The translations under genes and the position numbers were made by a program. Positions 360-16,421 of a DNA stretch of 20,426 bases are shown one piece after another (positions within the stretch are counted from its first letter, which is position 1; each line of letters begins with the position of its first letter). The notes beneath the pieces were generated by a model. The model was not told the DNA's origin. It saw only the letters and a list, made by a program, of their open reading frames with translations, and searched no databases. Source of the stretch: Octopus sinensis (taxonomy: Eukaryota); the NCBI RefSeq assembly GCF_006345805.1, contig NW_021823981.1:1-20426 (forward strand). The letters run 5' to 3'.

Positions 360-797
360 AAAGATTGTAACTGAAAGAAAAGATGACAATAATGCTCAGA
401 GAAACGTAGTGTTAATTCATAAATTTGTTTAAATTGCAATTTCAGTCGCTGCTCGATTTCATGCCCTGCAATCTTTCACAAACACAAACAAGAAACCGCT
501 TATTGATAATCGAACCTTCCCACCACCTCTCACCTTCTCCAATCTCTGGCCTACTTACAATTTGCTATGCTCTCTTTCTTTTCATACAACTACTATCAGA
601 TCTTTTGTTCACTCTCTACTACCACTACTGCCCCCATCACCATCCGTATTGCACTTGGTACCCTTTCTCTTGTTACGTACAGAAGAACTACTCCAGACTA
701 CAGAACTATTCCTTCAACCCTTCCCGCCATTACATCGGTGTTGTTTTATTTCTCTCACAGTCGTCGTTCTTTCTCTTCCATATCTCTTCTTCTATTA

Positions 798-887
798 AGG
801 TAGCAGAATCGTTCGAGAGTCGGACAATATGCTCAGCAAGATTTCTTCCGGCTCTTTACATTCTGAGTTCAAATGCAACCGAGGTCA
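798..887 (+). mobile_element. tRNA-derived SINE family B, 5' fragment
   Basis: GCAGAATCGTT...ATGCTCAGC...TTCTGAGTTCAAAT...CCGAGGTC matches the copies at 4603, 8199(-) and 13711-14127(-); B-box-like GAGTTCAAAT. Confidence 0.8.
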
Positions 888-900
888 GGCTACATCGGAC

Positions 901-1062
901 ATCCCAAACATGCATATTAGAGACCACAGACTACAGGAGGTGGAAAAGTTTACCTATCTTGGCTCTAACGTCACCTACAACCTATCCCTTGATGCCGAGA
1001 TCAATATACGCATTGGCAAGGCAGCTGCTGTGATGGCCTAACTCTCCAAACGGGCATGGGAC
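901..1062 (+). mobile_element. RTE-clade LINE ORF2 fragment (region just C-terminal to the RT core), pseudogenised
   Basis: Translates IPNMHIRDHRLQEVEKFTYLGSNVTYNLSLDAEINIRIGKAAAVMA*LSKRAWD, the typical RTE/BovB 'LEVVEKFTYLGS...EINxRIxKA...F.xL..RVW' motif; in-frame TAA at 1039-1041. Confidence 0.9.
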
Positions 1063-1192
1063 CTCAATACATATATATACATATATACATATATATATAT
1101 AATAATAAGTGTAGATCGTATACTAGTGGGTATATATTTATAAAAAAGAAGTTTGAAAACGCCACTATATAAGATAAATTTTAATTTTCTTA

Positions 1193-1248
1193 GAAATTTT
1201 ACATGTTTCGGTTCTTCTTGAAAAAACGAACCTTATCAAAAATATTTT
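1193..1248 (-). ncRNA. type-I hammerhead-ribozyme-like motif (U3:A8 core variant)
   Basis: Minus strand: ATATTT-TTGATAA-GGTTC(13 nt)GAACC-GAAAC-AT-GTA-AAATTT, with stem II GGTTC/GAACC, minimal stem III and AT-rich stem I. Confidence 0.55.
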
Positions 1249-1387
1249 AAAAAGTCAAGTGTAATAAAAAGTTCATAATTGTTTCTTACTGGTCTCAATA
1301 GGACCCACGTGGTTGTTTTTCGCTGTCTTGTGTTCGAATGAACTGCGGCTGAAATGGCTGAAATATATATATATTTATATATATACA

Positions 1388-1551
1388 CGACGGGTTTCTT
1401 TCAGTTTCTGTCTACTTAATCCACTCACAAGGCTTTGGTCAGTCTGAAGCGACAGAAGAAGACACTTGCTTAGAGTATTACCCAGTGGGACTGAACCCAG
1501 AACCATGTGGTTGGGAAGCAAGCTTCCTACCACACAGCCACGCCTGCACCT
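1388..1551 (-). mobile_element. tRNA-derived SINE family A, head
   Basis: Reverse complement of GGCGCAGGxGTGGCTGTGTGGTA...CCAACCACATGGTTCxGGGTTCAGTCCCACTG...CCCGTCG; aligns with 2098-2244 and 16290-16421. Confidence 0.9.
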
Positions 1552-1699
1552 ATGCATATAAAATATAATAAACAACGTGTTTTAACAATTTTTTTTAATG
1601 CAATTCCTAACAACAACTAATTATAAAAGTACTTTAAAACATCGAATGGCTATGAAGGTTTGTCCAAGTGAAATAGAAATCAAAGGAGTCGATGAGCAA

Positions 1700-1970
1700 A
1701 GTATGTTCGAGAACCACTGTCGTAACACCACTGCTAATTCCCTGCCCCCACACAACATAATCAAAAAAATTTTAATCTTAACAGGCCTAACTAAACAGAC
1801 ACACCTTCACTGCATCAGTTACGTCTTTTCCCTACACGCCCCAGACTTTCTACTAAGTACGTCACTCACTCACAGCTTCCCATCATTTCAACACTATGGA
1901 ATTTCCTCTTGACTCATTTAGTCTTATTTTTTGTATTTTGTCTTTCCTCTTCTTCAAACGGGCGTTGACT
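1700..1970 (+). mobile_element. possible highly decayed CR1/L2-group LINE 3' end
   Basis: Frameshifted peptides in the expected order: 'HCRNTTANSLPP', 'HSF..TLWNFL' (TGG at 1897) and 'LFFKRAL' (~1947-1967), resembling the 'SFFPRT..LWNSLP....L..FK..L' C-terminus; weak similarity only. Confidence 0.3.
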
Positions 1971-2097
1971 TGCAGCAAAAAATTCCAGCTGCGAAGGTCA
2001 GGGAAATCGATATTTCTTGTTTAAAGAAACGAAGTGTAAACTAGGAAATACGGAGTTTGATAAGGCGTGGTAATACATACATACATACATACATATA

Positions 2098-2244
2098 CGC
2101 AGGAGTGGCTGTGTGGTAAGTAGCTTGCTTACCAACCACATGGTTCAGTCCAACTGCGTGGCACCTTGGGCAAGTGTCTTCTAATATAGCCTCGGGCCGA
2201 CCAAAGCCTTGTGAGTGGATTTGGTAGACGGAAGTAGCCCGTCG
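2098..2244 (+). mobile_element. tRNA-derived SINE family A, head (small internal deletions)
   Basis: CGCAGGAGTGGCTGTGTGGTAAGTAGCTTGCTTACCAACCACATGGTTCAGTCC...GGCACCTTGGGCAAGTGTCTTCT...GCCCGTCG, followed by (TATG)n. Confidence 0.92.
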
Positions 2245-2333
2245 TATGTATGTATGTATGTATGTATGTATGTATGTATGTATGTATGTATGTATGTATG
2301 TATCTATGTATGTATGTATATATATATATATAT
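2245..2333. repeat. (TATG)n + (TA)n microsatellite
   Basis: direct reading. Confidence 0.95.
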
Positions 2334-2531
2334 AAATGGAAAGTTTACGAAAATAAACAAAAGACGAAGGCAGGTGGAGTACAAACAAACAAATGTATTA
2401 GTGTAGCGCTCAGGAATAGAAAAAAACTCTTTTACGTTTCAAGCCTACGCTCTTCGACAGAAAGATACACAGAAAAAAAACACGGAGAGAAAAAACTAGG
2501 AGCTAACGATCTATCATGGCGTCCTGACTTC
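2334..2531 (-). mobile_element. ~200-bp insert in (TA)n carrying a hammerhead-like motif (Penelope-like terminal relic?)
   Basis: Flanked on both sides by (TA)n; its left end is similar to 9740-9792; contains the HHR-like motif at 2428-2465. Confidence 0.55.
2428..2465 (-). ncRNA. minimal type-I hammerhead-ribozyme-like motif (degenerate core)
   Basis: Minus strand: TCTTT-CTGTCGA-A-GAGC GTAG GCTT-GAAAC-GTA-AAAGA; perfect 5-bp stem I, 4-bp stem II, palindromic ACGT stem III; core A6 is replaced by T. Confidence 0.55.
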
Positions 2532-2567
2532 ATATATATATATACATATATATATACATATATATAC

Positions 2568-2612
<45 letters not shown>

Positions 2613-2682
2613 TGGCTGTGTATGTGTGTGTGCTTGTGTGTGAGTATGTGCATGTGTGCATGTGTATGTGAATATGTGTGTG
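2532..2682. repeat. compound (TA)n/(TG)n microsatellite
   Basis: direct reading. Confidence 0.95.
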
Positions 2683-2689
2683 AAGATAT

Positions 2690-2852
2690 GATGGGCTTCT
2701 AACAGTTTCCGTTTACCAAATTTATTCACAAGGCACTATTCGACTTGTAATTAATGTAGATGCTATTTGCCCAAGGTACAGCACAGCGAAACTGAACCCG
2801 AAACCATGTGAATGCAAACCGAAACTCTTAACCACACACACTCATGCCTGCA
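2690..2852 (-). mobile_element. SINE family A head, diverged
   Basis: GGGCTTCT..CAGTTTCCGTTTACCAAAT...CACAAGGC...TTGCCCAAGGT...ACTGAACCCG.AACCATGTG...ACCACAC...GCCTGC. Confidence 0.85.
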
Positions 2853-3057
2853 CGTGCGCATGCGCGCAGATACACACACATTCATACGTACAAGCGTATG
2901 TGTATATGTGTATGGGGAGACAGTAGGAGGGACGGGGTGTAAGAAACGAGCAAGCGGAAGGGAGATCGGGTGGGGGTGTATATGTGTATGTGTGTGTGTG
3001 CGTGCGCATGTATCTGTATACCGGATGTTAATGAGACTTGAGAGATTTGTTTTCTAT

Positions 3058-3128
3058 ACACACAAACACTCATACACAAACACACACACATACACTGTAA
3101 ATAGAAAAAGTAAATAAAAATATACATA

Positions 3129-3167
<39 letters not shown>

Positions 3168-3669
3168 TACACACACATACACACACTCATATGTCAAATC
3201 TATGTCTAACTGTGAATAAATAAAAACTACAGACAAACATAACATGTTTATATAAAAGCATTTGCGTATACATAAGTGTGAGTGTGTGTGTGTGTGTGTA
3301 TGTGTGTCTGTCTGTCTGTCTGTCTGTGTGCATGTTTGTCTGTGTATGTCCATGTAGGCGTGTATATGTGTGTGTATGTGTTTCAAACGTGTTTTCGTAG
3401 TTTTTAAAGAAAAAAAAACGGAAATGTTCAGACGCTACAAGAAAGAACGAAAGAAAGAAAGAGTGAAGGAAAGGAAGAATGAATCAAAGAAAGAATGAAA
3501 GAAAGAAAGAGCGAAATAAAGAAAGAAGGAAAGAAAAAACTGAATGAAAGAAAGATTGGATGAAATATGCAGTAAGAGCGAAAAAAAAGGGGAAAAAGGG
3601 AAAAAAATGCAAACTTACACAAATAAAATACATACACACAGACAGACAGACGCACAGACACATATATAC

Positions 3670-3731
<62 letters not shown>
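3058..3731. repeat. simple-repeat block: (CA)n, (TA)n, (TG)n, (TCTG)n, (GAAA)n, (GATA)n
   Basis: direct reading; source of the spurious ORFs at 2882, 3054 and 3428. Confidence 0.9.
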
Positions 3732-3733
<2 letters not shown>

Positions 3734-3819
3734 GCGCAGGAGTGTCTGTGTGGTAAATAGCTTGCTTACCAACCTTCGGCAAGTGTCTTCTACTATAGCC
3801 TCGGGCCGACCAAAGCCCG

Positions 3820-3875
<56 letters not shown>

Positions 3876-4110
3876 AAATATTATGTATGTGTGTGTATTT
3901 GTGTGTCTACGTTTGCCCCACCACCACCACCACCACCATCACTTGACAACCGATGTTGGTGTGTTTACGTCTCCGTAGCATAGCGGTTCAGCATAAGAGC
4001 CCGATAGATTAAGTAAGAGGCTTACAGAGAAAAATTCCTGGGGTCGATTTGTTCGAATAAAGCGGTGCTCCAACATGGCCGCAGTCAAATAACTGAAATA
4101 AGTAAAAGAA
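3732..4110 (+). mobile_element. SINE family A, bipartite copy: head 3732-3820 (internally deleted), central microsatellite, tail 3915-4110
   Basis: Tail CTTGACAACCGATGTTGGTGTGTTTACGTC...GGGGTCGATTTGTTCG...GCGGTGCTCCAACATGGCCGCAGTCAAATAACTGAAA; same layout at 10300-10760, 11321-12122(-) and 15808-16421(-). Confidence 0.9.
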
Positions 4111-4186
4111 GATATATATATATATATATATATAAATATATATATATATTATATCTGTAATATAATACGCGACAATTCAGTTGCCA

Positions 4187-4250
4187 TCATAAAACTCCGA
4201 GTTTCGGATGTCGGGGCGGAAACCTGCTCCGGCATTTCGTCAATTATCGA
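4187..4250 (-). ncRNA. decayed hammerhead-ribozyme-like motif with long stem II
   Basis: Minus strand: ATAA-TTGACGA-(31-nt imperfect GC-rich hairpin)-GAAAC-TCGGA-GTT-TTAT; stem I ATAA/TTAT; the base of stem II is mismatched. Confidence 0.45.
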
Positions 4251-4278
4251 GGGAATCAAAAAAAATTTTATATATATG

Positions 4279-4418
4279 TAAACAACTTATAAATAAGGGC
4301 AAACGAAAAAATTTTCTAATGCCAAATATGCCGAAATTAGACACCCTGTCCATAACCATATAATTTTTTCACAATACGCACGCTACTCAAAAAAGGTCGA
4401 CAGAAATTTCTAAAAAAT
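4279..4418. repeat. ~140-bp interspersed repeat adjoining (TA)n
   Basis: TAAACAACTTATAAATAAGGGCAAA...TGCCAAATATGCCGAAA...ATAACCATATAATT...CGACAGAAATT; homologous to 11676-11751(+) and 11752-11888(-). Confidence 0.85.
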
Positions 4419-4423
4419 TACCT

Positions 4424-4488
4424 CATTACCATACCGGACCGATTTCAGGGTTGGTTCATAAGAACCCTCCCTTCGTCAGTGATAAATG
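4424..4488 (-). ncRNA. type-I hammerhead-ribozyme-like motif with intact core
   Basis: Minus strand: TTATCA-CTGACGA-AGGG AG GGTTC TTAT GAACC AA CCCT-GAAA-T CG-GTC-CGGTA; canonical CUGANGA/GAAA/GUC core, 9-bp interrupted stem II; first pair of stem I is an A-C mismatch. Confidence 0.65.
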
Positions 4489-4602
4489 TGGCAAAGAAAT
4501 AAATGAGATACTTACTCATACCCATGGAAGAAGCAAACACTAAGTCATGAGCACAATTAAGTACCCCAAATACATCCAAAATAGAAATTCTCCAGCCCAT
4601 TT

Positions 4603-5915: not shown

Positions 5916-6386
5916 TTTTACTGATATTGTGATTCCTGACATTATTTGTATCCCACATTTATCATTACTATTATTGTTTATTACTCATATGGACATTAGA
6001 GATATTAGTTGTTACTTTCATTATTTATTAATCTCATTATAAACACCATGCCGATATAAGGTATACTAATGCGACAAAGCTAGCGACGAAAGACTCAAGA
6101 CTCGAACCCCTTCTCTACATCTTGCCTGACCACCACGTTAACAGTTACACTGTAGAACACCTCCCTTTGATTCCCCTCACATTAGCGATACCAGGTGTTC
6201 TATAGTGTTGTAGGTAAATGGGTAGGTGGTGGATACATGACTCGAGGGATACCCTGACTTTTAGTCGTCACCGGATTTTTCGTGGGCAAATTCGTTTACT
6301 GTAAAATCAAATCTAATCGTTTCAAAACTATGCTTATTCCCATTAACTTTACTTTCATTCAAATAATAAATTGTTATTATACAACT

Positions 6387-6814
6387 GGGACCTTTTCGGT
6401 TTGAACGGCAGTTTTTCTAGCAGTGTCATATGAAATTGTCACCCATAATTATGACCCTAGTATCGATCTATTGCATTTCAATCTTTTTTAGGGTTAAGAT
6501 TAGTTATGGTTAGGGTTAGGGGTGGGGGGAAGGGTATCTTTTTTTCTTCAGAAATGTAAATAAACCCAATCTGTTTCTTAAACGAGGGACTTAATTCATA
6601 CGGCACAGAATGTTTTCACCTCAATAGACGTCAATGATTGGTTGAAATTGCAGAAATTGAAGAAAAAAAACCCCAAATATTTTATAAACTATAGAATTTT
6701 CTCAATAAAGCCAAGAGAAAAAGATGTTTTATAAACACATTCTACCAGTATACGAAGTTTAAAAGTTGCGTGGAAATTATTTTTAAATACTGGCGTTCAA
6801 ACCGAAAAGATCAC
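6387..6814. mobile_element. MITE / non-autonomous DNA transposon, 428 bp, ~29-bp TIRs, 6-bp TSD
   Basis: Left end GGGACCTTTTCGGTTTGAACGGCAGTTTT vs reverse complement of right end GTGATCTTTTCGGTTTGAACGCCAGTATT; ACAACT is duplicated at 6381-6386 and 6815-6820. Confidence 0.92.
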
Positions 6815-6888
6815 ACAACTGTTGACGAAACACTCAGTCATACATTGCAAGACACGTGATTCAGTGAAGCTTATTTTTTCTGTTGTTG

Positions 6889-6914
6889 ATGATGATGATG
6901 ATGATGATGATGAT
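6889..6914. repeat. (GAT)n microsatellite
   Basis: direct reading. Confidence 0.95.
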
Positions 6915-7774: not shown

Positions 7775-7995
7775 AGGCGCTAAAAATTCCTGTGTGGTAA
7801 GTACTTGCTTACCAACCACATGTTTCCGGGTTCAGTTCCACTGCGTGGTACCTTGGGCAAGTATCTTCTGCTATGGCTTCGAGCCGACTAAAGACATAAT
7901 GAAGTTGATATAATCACCCACCACATATACATGTACAAACAAATTTTAAAGGTGGTGCTCCAGCATGGCCGTTGTGCTAAAGCCAATTAAAGAAT
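7775..7995 (+). mobile_element. SINE family A: head 7775-7895 and short tail remnant 7948-7995
   Basis: TGTGTGGTAAGTACTTGCTTACCAACCACATGTTTCCGGGTTCAGTTCCACTGCGTGG...; AAAGGTGGTGCTCCAGCATGGCCG. Confidence 0.85.
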
Positions 7996-8198
7996 CAACC
8001 TTTTTGGTTCAATTACACAGCGATGTACATAGTAGTCCTCCGGGCGAGAGAAAGTTCGATTCTTTCAGAGTGACGTTGTGTCAGTCGTCGACGTGCATTC
8101 CTTTTGTTGTTGTTGTTGTTGTTGTTTAACCCCGCGCCATCTCTGACGTAGAAAATCAGTCATCAAAACCTTCTAACCATAATCTTTAAAAAAATTTT

Positions 8199-8425
8199 TT
8201 TTTTATTGCCCACAAGGGGCTGAACATAGAGGGGACAAACAAGGACAGATAAACGGATTAAGTCGATTACATCGACTCCAGTGCGTAACTGGCACTTAAT
8301 TTATCGACCCCGAAAGGATGAAAGGCAAAGTCGACCTCGGCGGAATTTGAACTCAGAACGCAGCAGCGGACGAAATAACACAAACAATTTCGCCCGGCTT
8401 GCTAACGTTTCTGCCAGCTCGCCCT
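8199..8425 (-). mobile_element. SINE family B, near full length
   Basis: Closely matches 13895-14127; A-rich tail appears as a T-run at ~8195-8205. Confidence 0.93.
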
Positions 8426-11594: not shown

Positions 11595-11682
<88 letters not shown>

Positions 11683-12122
11683 AACTCATAAACAAGGTCA
11701 AAGGAAAAATGTTCTAATGCCAAAGATGCCGAAAACAGACACATTGTCAATTTCTTTTAGTAATTTCTGTCGGCTTTCTACGAGACGCGTGCTTATAGTG
11801 ATGAATTATATGGTTATTGACGATGCGTCTCTTTTCGGCATATTTGGCAGTAGAAATTTTTTCTTTTGCCCTTTATAAGTTGTTTATAAATTTAACCTTT
11901 AAAGGTATTTTTTAATATGCTGGCCATTGATAGAATTTTTTTTTAAAAATTTTATCCTATATTAGATGTAAATTTTATATATATACATACACATGGACTA
12001 TCAGTTTCACTCATATGAGACTGGTCACTCCCAAGATAACTACTCAGGTACCACACAATGAGGCCGAACCCCAAATCACGTTGTAGCCAAGCAAACTTCT
12101 TAAACCCACAGCTATGTTTATG
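11321..12122 (-). mobile_element. SINE family A bipartite copy (tail ~11321-11510, head ~11995-12122) with an insertion in its central microsatellite
   Basis: TTGTTTCAGTC...GCGGCGATGCTGG...GAACCGCTAAGTTAC; head TCAGTTTC...CAGGTACCACACAATG.GGCCGAACCC...AAACTTCTTAAACCCACAGC. Confidence 0.7.
11676..11888. repeat. inverted pair of the 140-bp repeat (short + copy 11676-11751, longer - copy 11752-11888)
   Basis: TATAAACAACTCATAAACAAGG...GACACATTGTCAAT is the imperfect reverse complement of ATTGACGATGCGTC...CCCTTTATAAGTTGTTTATA (11816-11888). Confidence 0.88.
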
Positions 12123-13530: not shown

Positions 13531-13710
13531 CAAATATCATGCATATTTCATTATGTCTTGGATTGCGAAGTAATCAATTACAATTTAACCGATGTTTCTT
13601 CTGAATACTAAGCTACACAGGTTCCTACATAAAGCGCTGATTATAATTATTCCTTCAATGTATATATATATATATATATATTATTACCGCCTTAGTAATA
13701 TCAATGTATT

Positions 13711-14127
13711 TATTTATTTATTGCCTACAGAGGGCTAAACATAGAGGGGACAAACAAGGACAGACAAGGGGATTAAGTCGATTATATCGACCCCAGTGAC
13801 TTACTGGTACTTATTTAATCGACCCCGAAAGGATGAAAGGAAAAGTCGACCACGGCGGAATTTGAACTCAGAACGTAACGGCAGACGAAATACCTATTTC
13901 TTTACTACCCACAAGGGGCTAAACACAGAGGGGACAAACAAGGACAGACATAGGTATTAAGTCGATTATATCGACCCCTGTGCGTAATTGGTACTTAATT
14001 TATCGACCCCGAAAGGATGAAAGGCAAAGTCGACCTCGGCGGAATTTGAACTCAGAACGTAAAGACAGACGAAATACCGCTAAGCATTTCGCCCGGCGTT
14101 CTAACGTTTCTGCCAGCTCGCCGCCTT
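13711..14127 (-). mobile_element. SINE family B partial tandem dimer (full unit 14127-13895 plus headless unit 13894-13711) with TSD
   Basis: Two highly similar units; flanking direct repeat CCGCCTTAG(T/C)AATATCAATG(T/C)ATT at 13687-13710 and 14121-14144. Confidence 0.93.
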
Positions 14128-16100: not shown

Positions 16101-16421
16101 TTATTATTATTATTATATGTAGAAAAATACAAACTGGGACAAGACGTAAAACATTTAGAAGACGATACAAAAAAACACGGACGGGACATTCGAAGCCTTC
16201 AATCTTCAGTCAAGAACCGGATCATCGTAGCAATTTCGGCTGATATATATATATACATATATAATATATATATATATATATTATATATGCGATGGGATTC
16301 TTTCATTTTCCGTCTACCAAGGCTTTGGTTGCCCGAGGCACTTGCCCAAGGTGCCACGCAGTGTGACTCAGCCTGGAACCAAGTGGTTGGGAAGCAAGCT
16401 TCTTACCACACAGCCACGCCT
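15808..16421 (-). mobile_element. SINE family A bipartite copy (tail 15808-16015, head 16290-16421) with a ~120-bp insertion in its central (TA)n
   Basis: TTGTTTAAGTCATTGGGCTG...CTGGAGCACTGCCTTGAA...; head CACTTGCCCAAGGTGCCACGCAGTG...CTTCTTACCACACAGCCACGCCTG. Confidence 0.85.
16120..16243. mobile_element. short foreign insert within (TA)n
   Basis: Mixed-sequence 124-bp segment bounded by (TA)n/(TTA)n; minus strand has CTGAAGA-TT-GAAG G CTTC-GAA, at best a remnant of a hammerhead core. Confidence 0.5.

Follow-up and report, generated by a model that had tools for sequence, protein, structure and literature searches.

A 20,426-nucleotide stretch of the Octopus sinensis genome (NCBI RefSeq assembly GCF_006345805.1, contig NW_021823981.1, positions 1 to 20,426; termed here the window) is repeat-rich animal DNA that carries four hammerhead ribozyme-like motifs on its minus strand, at 1193-1248, 2428-2465, 4187-4250 and 4424-4488. 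All four are genuine hammerhead-fold elements, and each comes from a different multi-copy repeat family. Three of these families very probably carry the hammerhead in the 3' repeats of Penelope-like elements (PLEs), and the fourth is a 475-nt unit without an open reading frame (ORF) that is likely mobilised in trans, self-cleavage being predicted to occur in dimers. Hammerheads are known from the pseudo-long terminal repeats (pLTRs) of Penelope elements and from retrozymes, and a cluster of four motifs is ordinary for such a genome. The added value comes from a family with U rather than A at core position 6 (A6U) and from the way in which family 4 copies are inserted; the remainder is mostly of a known kind.

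Hammerhead motifs and the Penelope-like elements of families 1 to 3

The original prediction of four type-I motifs on the minus strand is borne out. A type-I descriptor applied to the whole window matched three of the four (1196-1243, 2428-2465 and 4426-4485) and nothing else, whereas 200 local dinucleotide shuffles gave a mean of 0.055 matches per window and 0.005 within 1105-4490, and three matches were reached in no shuffle. An earlier descriptor without the extra base after A9 had caught two of the four. Motif 3 (4187-4250), in which U3 stands opposite G8 and A replaces G10.1, is missed because the window copy is damaged; its family fits the motif. The GAAA block, palindromic helix III, UH site and helices I and II of minimal type-I hammerheads are all present. 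Stem III had been expected to be very short or palindromic, and it is palindromic, although “very short” does not suit motif 4 with its palindrome of 5 bp. The CUGANGA core, or its U3-A8 covariant, is found in families 1, 3 and 4, apart from the damaged window copy of family 3; motif 2 has U instead of A at position 6. In cofolds, the helix III palindrome is paired across in motifs 1, 3 and 4 and not in motif 2. The loci fetched for the four families (798 kb) contain in their flanks 10 further hammerhead clusters with 14 descriptor matches, and the 3-8 pair is Watson-Crick in nine of the ten (C3-G8 in six, U3-A8 in three), the tenth having U3-G8. Shuffle controls of the 798 kb gave 0-6 matches per pass in 10 passes.

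All four inserts are multi-copy: first-look searches yielded 1542, 2485, 1391 and 2618 candidates for families 1 to 4, of which the best 40 were scored and 30 fetched per family. Among the matches listed, the aligned copies keep the fold and end at fixed 3' positions, whereas their 5' truncation varies, and the core is conserved within each of the four alignments. Copies within families 1 to 3 are too alike to show covariation. Placement of the inserts beside (TA)n, and enrichment of (TA)n at their ends, had also been proposed and are observed. (TA)3 lies within 16 nt of the 3' end in 27 of 30 copies of family 1 and in 25 of 30 of family 2, compared with a background of 8.4% at 24,000 random positions. 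TA follows 43 of the 55 fixed-end family 4 arms (20/28 and 23/27 at the two ends). Family 3 possesses two 3' ends; (TA)3 is present at the inner end in 5 of 30 copies, and of 16 copies extending to the outer end, 13 continue into TA, as judged by eye.

Within the window, families 1 to 3 are 5'-truncated 3' ends (pLTRs) of PLEs. Family 1 (1097-1358, minus strand) is a truncated pLTR of a Neptune-type PLE, with its 3' end at a (TA)n-rich tract (1067-1101). Hammerhead 1 (1196-1243, minus strand) has the U3-A8 core variant, which is conserved in the alignment (U3 in 36/36, A8 in 35/36), and a 6-nt palindromic helix III; the predicted cut falls between 1200 and 1199. The window copy matches the pLTRs of tandem units at locus G000:C19, where 4.33-kb units encoding reverse transcriptase (RT) and GIY-YIG endonuclease are arranged head-to-tail in the order pLTR-ORF-pLTR-ORF-pLTR-(TA)n; on the 5' side lies a short inverted segment. 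Sense-strand GIY-YIG coding sequence (Pfam match, E=0.001) lies upstream of the pLTR in 4 of 30 family 1 loci.

Family 2 (2333-2531, minus strand) is a truncated pLTR of a second Neptune-type PLE, flanked by TA tracts on both sides, and longer copies carry RT and GIY-YIG sequence upstream. One upstream walk found sense-strand GIY-YIG-like sequence in 5 of 30 long copies and an RT piece in a sixth, and one locus presents a 328-aa RT frame (RVT_1, E=5e-6), with the endonuclease next and the hammerhead after it. Families 1 and 2 share only ~32% identity over the RT thumb.

Family 3 (4155-4263, minus strand) is a short fragment from the 3' part of a pLTR of a Hydra-type PLE; it stops at the inner 3' end beside (TA)n at 4112-4154. 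Hammerhead 3 (4187-4250, minus strand) is the damaged copy; the family alignment gives the intact motif, with a 9-nt near-palindromic helix III and conserved core columns (C3 57/60, A6 59/60, G8 59/60). Seven extended loci revealed endonuclease frames in four and an RT-thumb frame in a fifth, with GIY-YIG Pfam matches at E=0.003-0.013 for two of the three frames tested. Protein queries from family 1 missed the family 3 endonuclease.

The RT/GIY-YIG coding sequence that the note proposed to look for by extending the inserts was found upstream for families 1 to 3, complete in order for families 1 and 2. RT followed by a C-terminal GIY-YIG domain upstream of the pLTR, the organisation of endonuclease-bearing (EN+) PLEs, is seen in families 1 and 2, and the endonuclease and RT thumb only in family 3. 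Tandem pLTRs, 5' truncation, an inverted truncated partner and a microsatellite target are likewise present, the full tandem in family 1 only.

The hammerheads resemble the minimal forms of metazoan PLE pLTRs reported by Cervera and de la Pena (2014, PMC4209133), which share the type-I order, short helix I, palindromic helix III, the G10.1-C11.1 pair and mostly solo truncated copies. That source describes the U3-A8 variant, seen in family 1, and low activity of dimers; the extra base after A9 is shared with family 2. Family 2 differs in having U6 throughout, a core absent from the text and the one searchable supplement of that source. Compared with the Neptune clade of Craig et al. (2021, PMC8557442), families 1 and 2 share the C-terminal GIY-YIG domain, the CX4CxxC linker (CX2-5CxxC in the clade), the CCHH motif, two cysteines between GIY and YIG, tandem pLTRs and inverted truncated partners, the linker and CCHH motif being read by eye. 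Family 3 shares with the Hydra clade of the same source the CxCX5C linker, the lack of CCHH, a cysteine-free GIY-to-YIG stretch, CxxC and CxH near the C-terminus and the (TA)n target, the protein motifs again being read by eye. The nearest named member is Hydra-1_Obim, by protein likeness judged by eye, and helix III of family 3 equals the one listed for Hydra-2_aMil and Penelope-16_HM. Since the hammerhead of family 3 differs from the listed Hydra-1_oBim motif, family 3 is a family other than Hydra-1_oBim.

The expectation of several distinct ribozyme-bearing, (TA)n-targeting families is thus realised as three PLE pLTRs and one retrozyme-like element. The further expectation that these are probably uncurated holds in part: the supplement of PMC8557442 already includes a hammerhead-bearing Hydra element from octopus that prefers (TA)n, and an octopus repeat library annotates PLEs, with the word ribozyme absent (PMC13282606).

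We also note several features of these elements and their surroundings. The 3' untranslated region of family 1, just upstream of the hammerhead, contains three 102-bp tandem repeats (L121:2196-2570 and 6530-6900). An apparent ORF link at L154 proved to be an adjacent, different PLE family; L121:208-1343 (plus strand) and L154:1-640 represent a further Neptune-type PLE family; its hammerhead combines U3-A8 with a very short helix II. At window 790-1060, a LINE-type (long interspersed nuclear element) RT fragment, recognised by eye in a translation, is interrupted by the TA tract in which family 1 sits. Upstream of a family 3 copy, at L189:4366-7881, there is an insertion of Ty3/gypsy-like protease, RT and integrase pieces.

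The A6U core of family 2

Hammerhead 2 (2428-2465, minus strand) is minimal, with an additional A after A9, a 4-nt palindromic helix III, U6 at window position 2457 and the predicted cleavage site at 2433. The A6 of the type-I minimal hammerhead is replaced in nearly all of family 2. A search with an exact 27-nt family 2 pattern gave 13,792 matches, of which 13,318 have U6, 140 have A6 and 334 have C or G (88 C and 12 G among the 100 listed); reversed-pattern controls gave 0. U6 is also present in 60 of 61 aligned copies. Ten A6 copies that were inspected look like members of the same subfamilies as the U6 copies, and the A6 copies may be sporadic mutations, with small A6 lineages as the alternative.

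Selection on the fold is suggested by the distribution of variation. Thirty copies were picked through an anchor outside the motif; the core was ungapped in 22, all with U6, carried a one-base deletion in one and was uncovered in seven. Among the 23 copies with core coverage, only N7 and N17 of the 36 motif columns are polymorphic versus 21 of 82 flanking columns (Fisher p=0.008, the columns not being independent). N7 occurs as all four bases and N17 as A or U; both are positions that the hammerhead motif does not constrain.

U6, fixed in a very abundant family, is predicted to weaken self-cutting. Changes in the CUGA turn lead to low activity in vitro (PMC9901934, PMC3088659), and a natural A6C hammerhead cleaves slowly, at <0.1 per minute (PMC3088659). 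Family 2, which keeps the fold with U6, is most likely a slow or protein-dependent cutter. A serious contender, which we rate as quite plausible without preferring it, is that the motif is catalytically dead and that its fold is kept for protein binding or for positioning the start of reverse transcription, cleavage being dispensable. The prevalence of U6 in 13,318 of 13,792 exact matches and the poor activity of CUGA-turn mutants suit such a dead motif, as does the anole PLE in vitro, where purified protein inserted ribozyme-dead RNA normally, insertion had no need for cleavage and the ribozyme cut only with protein present (PMC11167929). A dead motif is less easily reconciled with polymorphism limited to N7 and N17, with N17 staying A or U as cleavage requires, or with the A6C ribozyme that still cuts, if slowly. 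The more ambitious proposal, in which family 2 would be a natural functional A6U hammerhead, maintained by selection in several subfamilies and over 13,000 copies and active by way of dimerisation or its Neptune protein, and family 4 would in addition reflect Penelope two-site copying of a circular ribozyme RNA, is put forward tentatively, as a possibility that we consider somewhat doubtful. If true, two fixed start sites, one per DNA end, would explain both the inverted ends of PLEs and the spread of retrozymes.

Literature and supplement searches found no printed A6U PLE hammerhead, and the large variant survey of Lunse et al. could report one. Because its fold seems to be under selection while its core change is predicted to be deleterious, the A6U family provides a natural test of whether PLE hammerheads need to cut. 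A small unrelated hammerhead cluster, present at L035 and one other locus, has U at position 6 in two of three matches.

Family 4 as a retrozyme-like unit

Family 4 is represented in the window by a 331-nt piece (4271-4601, minus strand) of a 475-nt unit that is circularly permuted; the piece runs from unit position 306 to 159, and its 3' end falls in the short TA tract between it and family 3. Hammerhead 4 (4426-4485, minus strand) possesses the canonical core, a 6-bp helix I and an 11-nt palindromic helix III, with a predicted cut after 4432. The unit is 475 nt in the reference and about 455-505 nt across copies, has 34% GC and contains no ATG-initiated ORF longer than 61 aa. A6 is invariant in the aligned copies (65/65), and the hammerhead core pattern has 741 exact matches. 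Unit mapping identified a second, older family-4-type insertion in the window (11670-11979), without a hammerhead, in which two inverted arms (11670-11751, minus strand; 11755-11979, plus strand) end at unit 159 and near 245.

Sixty loci yielded 73 family 4 arms, of which 28 end near unit 159, 27 near 242 and 18 elsewhere; two fixed end sites, 83 nt apart, are thus shared by 55 of 73 arms. Arms longer than one unit number 36 of 73, a biased rate given that half of the loci were chosen with a long query, and the longest reaches 3.8 units. The tandem retrozyme units that the note proposed to look for are seen here as head-to-tail 475-nt units. All 11 scorable inverted pairs use one of each end (~0.0005 if independent), a pattern that was noticed in the mapped loci first and counted afterwards, while 13 of the 24 inverted pairs have at least one ragged end and are unscorable. 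Covarying stems, for which the original prediction called, are seen in the family 4 clade: across nine variants, both partners differ in 9 of 18 pairs (1/500 shuffles; slid controls 1-3), the rows being hand-picked and related to each other. The largest array, G000:C434:150-2720 (L202, L207), holds 3.8 units on one strand and 1.4 inverted units, and belongs to a subfamily with compensatory changes in helix II.

Non-coding, low-GC, head-to-tail units, each with a type-I hammerhead, are the features of metazoan non-LTR retrozymes as defined in PMC7229834, whose main text makes no mention of octopus, and family 4 shares them. Its unit slightly exceeds the 150-450 bp of metazoan retrozymes and falls within the 51-972 bp of a recent preprint (bioRxiv 10.64898/2026.07.22.740005), which proposes that retrozymes derive from PLEs and are not autonomous. 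Unlike those retrozymes, family 4 occurs mostly as dispersed copies of less than two units and is known here from genomic copies. Its PLE-type fixed ends and inverted arms are not described in the accessible parts of PMC7229834 and the preprint. The anole Poseidon PLE in vitro (PMC11167929) offers a parallel: two RT start sites downstream of the hammerhead give a “tail”, and the target is AT-rich, although the tail is 30-40 nt there and ~80 nt in families 3 and 4. Family 4 likely moves in trans with the help of a Penelope enzyme. The published case for such a link is co-occurrence and sequence likeness, whereas the insertion anatomy of family 4 points to Penelope RT and endonuclease from the DNA ends.

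An improbable alternative is that family 4 belongs, as a pLTR, to an autonomous PLE that escaped the search, its short tandems having arisen by DNA recombination and not by copying of circular or multimeric RNA. It gains from the extent of the search, in which the best 40 candidates were scored per search and the partner was sought in 68 loci, and from the modest length of the longest array, 3.8 units. Yet in sufficiently long copies the preceding unit follows in the 5' direction, relatives at 70-80% identity have the same ends and no adjoining ORF, and over-unit copies are dispersed, with the constant 3' ends and the inverted partners that go with a single insertion. PLE protein matches at family 4 loci (3/60 and 2/8) were considered as the partner and rejected as separate insertions. 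Four sets of putative RNA contigs cover the family 4 unit, and two hold the unit-to-unit junction; the junction also exists in genomic copies and is therefore uninformative on expression or circles.

Mechanism, remaining alternatives and other features of the window

The favoured reading, three PLE families and one unit mobilised in trans, would operate as follows. A tandem or read-through transcript would be made, in which two hammerheads would pair through the palindromic helix III and then cleave, a reaction that is probably slow or assisted by protein (PMC4209133, PMC11167929); we infer the cleavage of dimers from the palindromes and the literature. The element protein would then nick (TA)n DNA with its GIY-YIG domain and prime reverse transcription at constant positions, which lie ~90-240 nt downstream of the ribozyme. 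Copying would usually stop early, leaving short 3' pieces. Because family 4 copies can exceed one unit in length, their template is likely a circle or multimer, and the inverted pairs likely arise when priming takes place twice, once at each of the two start sites. Fixed ends, TA flanks, 5' truncation, folds, ORF linkage and over-unit copies are observed, and the enzymology is conjectural.

An Rfam scan of the window returned 111 matches at E<=10, none of them to a hammerhead family; minimal hammerhead forms fall outside the Rfam models. Minimum free energy (MFE) folds and cofolds of the motifs did not return the three-way junction of the active hammerhead fold. Several points weigh against the favoured reading, in addition to the low activity of CUGA-turn variants, the unscorable family 4 pairs and the selected samples given above. 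Pfam scores for the PLE frames are all below the gathering cut-offs, every PLE ORF examined, in a non-exhaustive set of copies, is broken into pieces, and the RT core motif was not recovered for family 3 in the seven extended loci. The Neptune and Hydra labels are motifs read by eye in translations, with no tree. The autonomous partner PLE of family 4 was not found in 68 loci. Of nine dimers of Xenopus retrozymes, eight failed to cleave (bioRxiv 10.64898/2026.07.22.740005).

It is very unlikely that all four families are non-autonomous retrozymes or SINE-like (short interspersed nuclear element) inserts: the window pieces are indeed all short and non-coding, but families 1 to 3 extend 5' through the untranslated region into GIY-YIG coding sequence on the same strand, and the tandem ORF-bearing locus G000:C19 contradicts the idea directly. 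Hardly tenable at all is the notion of chance matches in AT-rich repeats, or of family 4 as a TA-targeting miniature inverted-repeat transposable element, which could draw on the Rfam result, the single-strand MFE folds and the resemblance of many family 4 loci to inverted repeats, and which is already contradicted by the shuffle controls, family-wide core conservation and covariation, and by inverted arms whose variable inner breakpoints and two different outer ends are unlike terminal inverted repeats.

The shared orientation of the four motifs, which the original prediction had noted, is compatible with chance and was rejected as a signal. All four would fall on the same strand by chance with p=1/8, neighbours of different families in other loci are on the same strand in 10 of 16 pairs (p=0.45), and the family 2 pattern is balanced between the strands genome-wide (6574 vs 6744).

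Two SINE-like families in the window, which we take to be of tRNA type, have many copies, at 1386-1554, 2097-2243, 3733-3820, 7790-7890, 8189-8423 and 13704-14122, including a 184-bp tandem pair. The segment 6360-6810 has matching ends by eye (~6386-6420 and 6780-6812) and may be a non-autonomous DNA element. A fifth hammerhead-like family is present at 16111-16244 (minus strand), where the blocks are permuted in the order site, GAAA, CUGAAGA, an arrangement that resembles the SGC described in PMC10085705. In the window the copy breaks off 5' of its GAAA block, and fuller copies occur at L006, L042, L076 and L255; in helix III, L006 and L076 show paired differences by eye.

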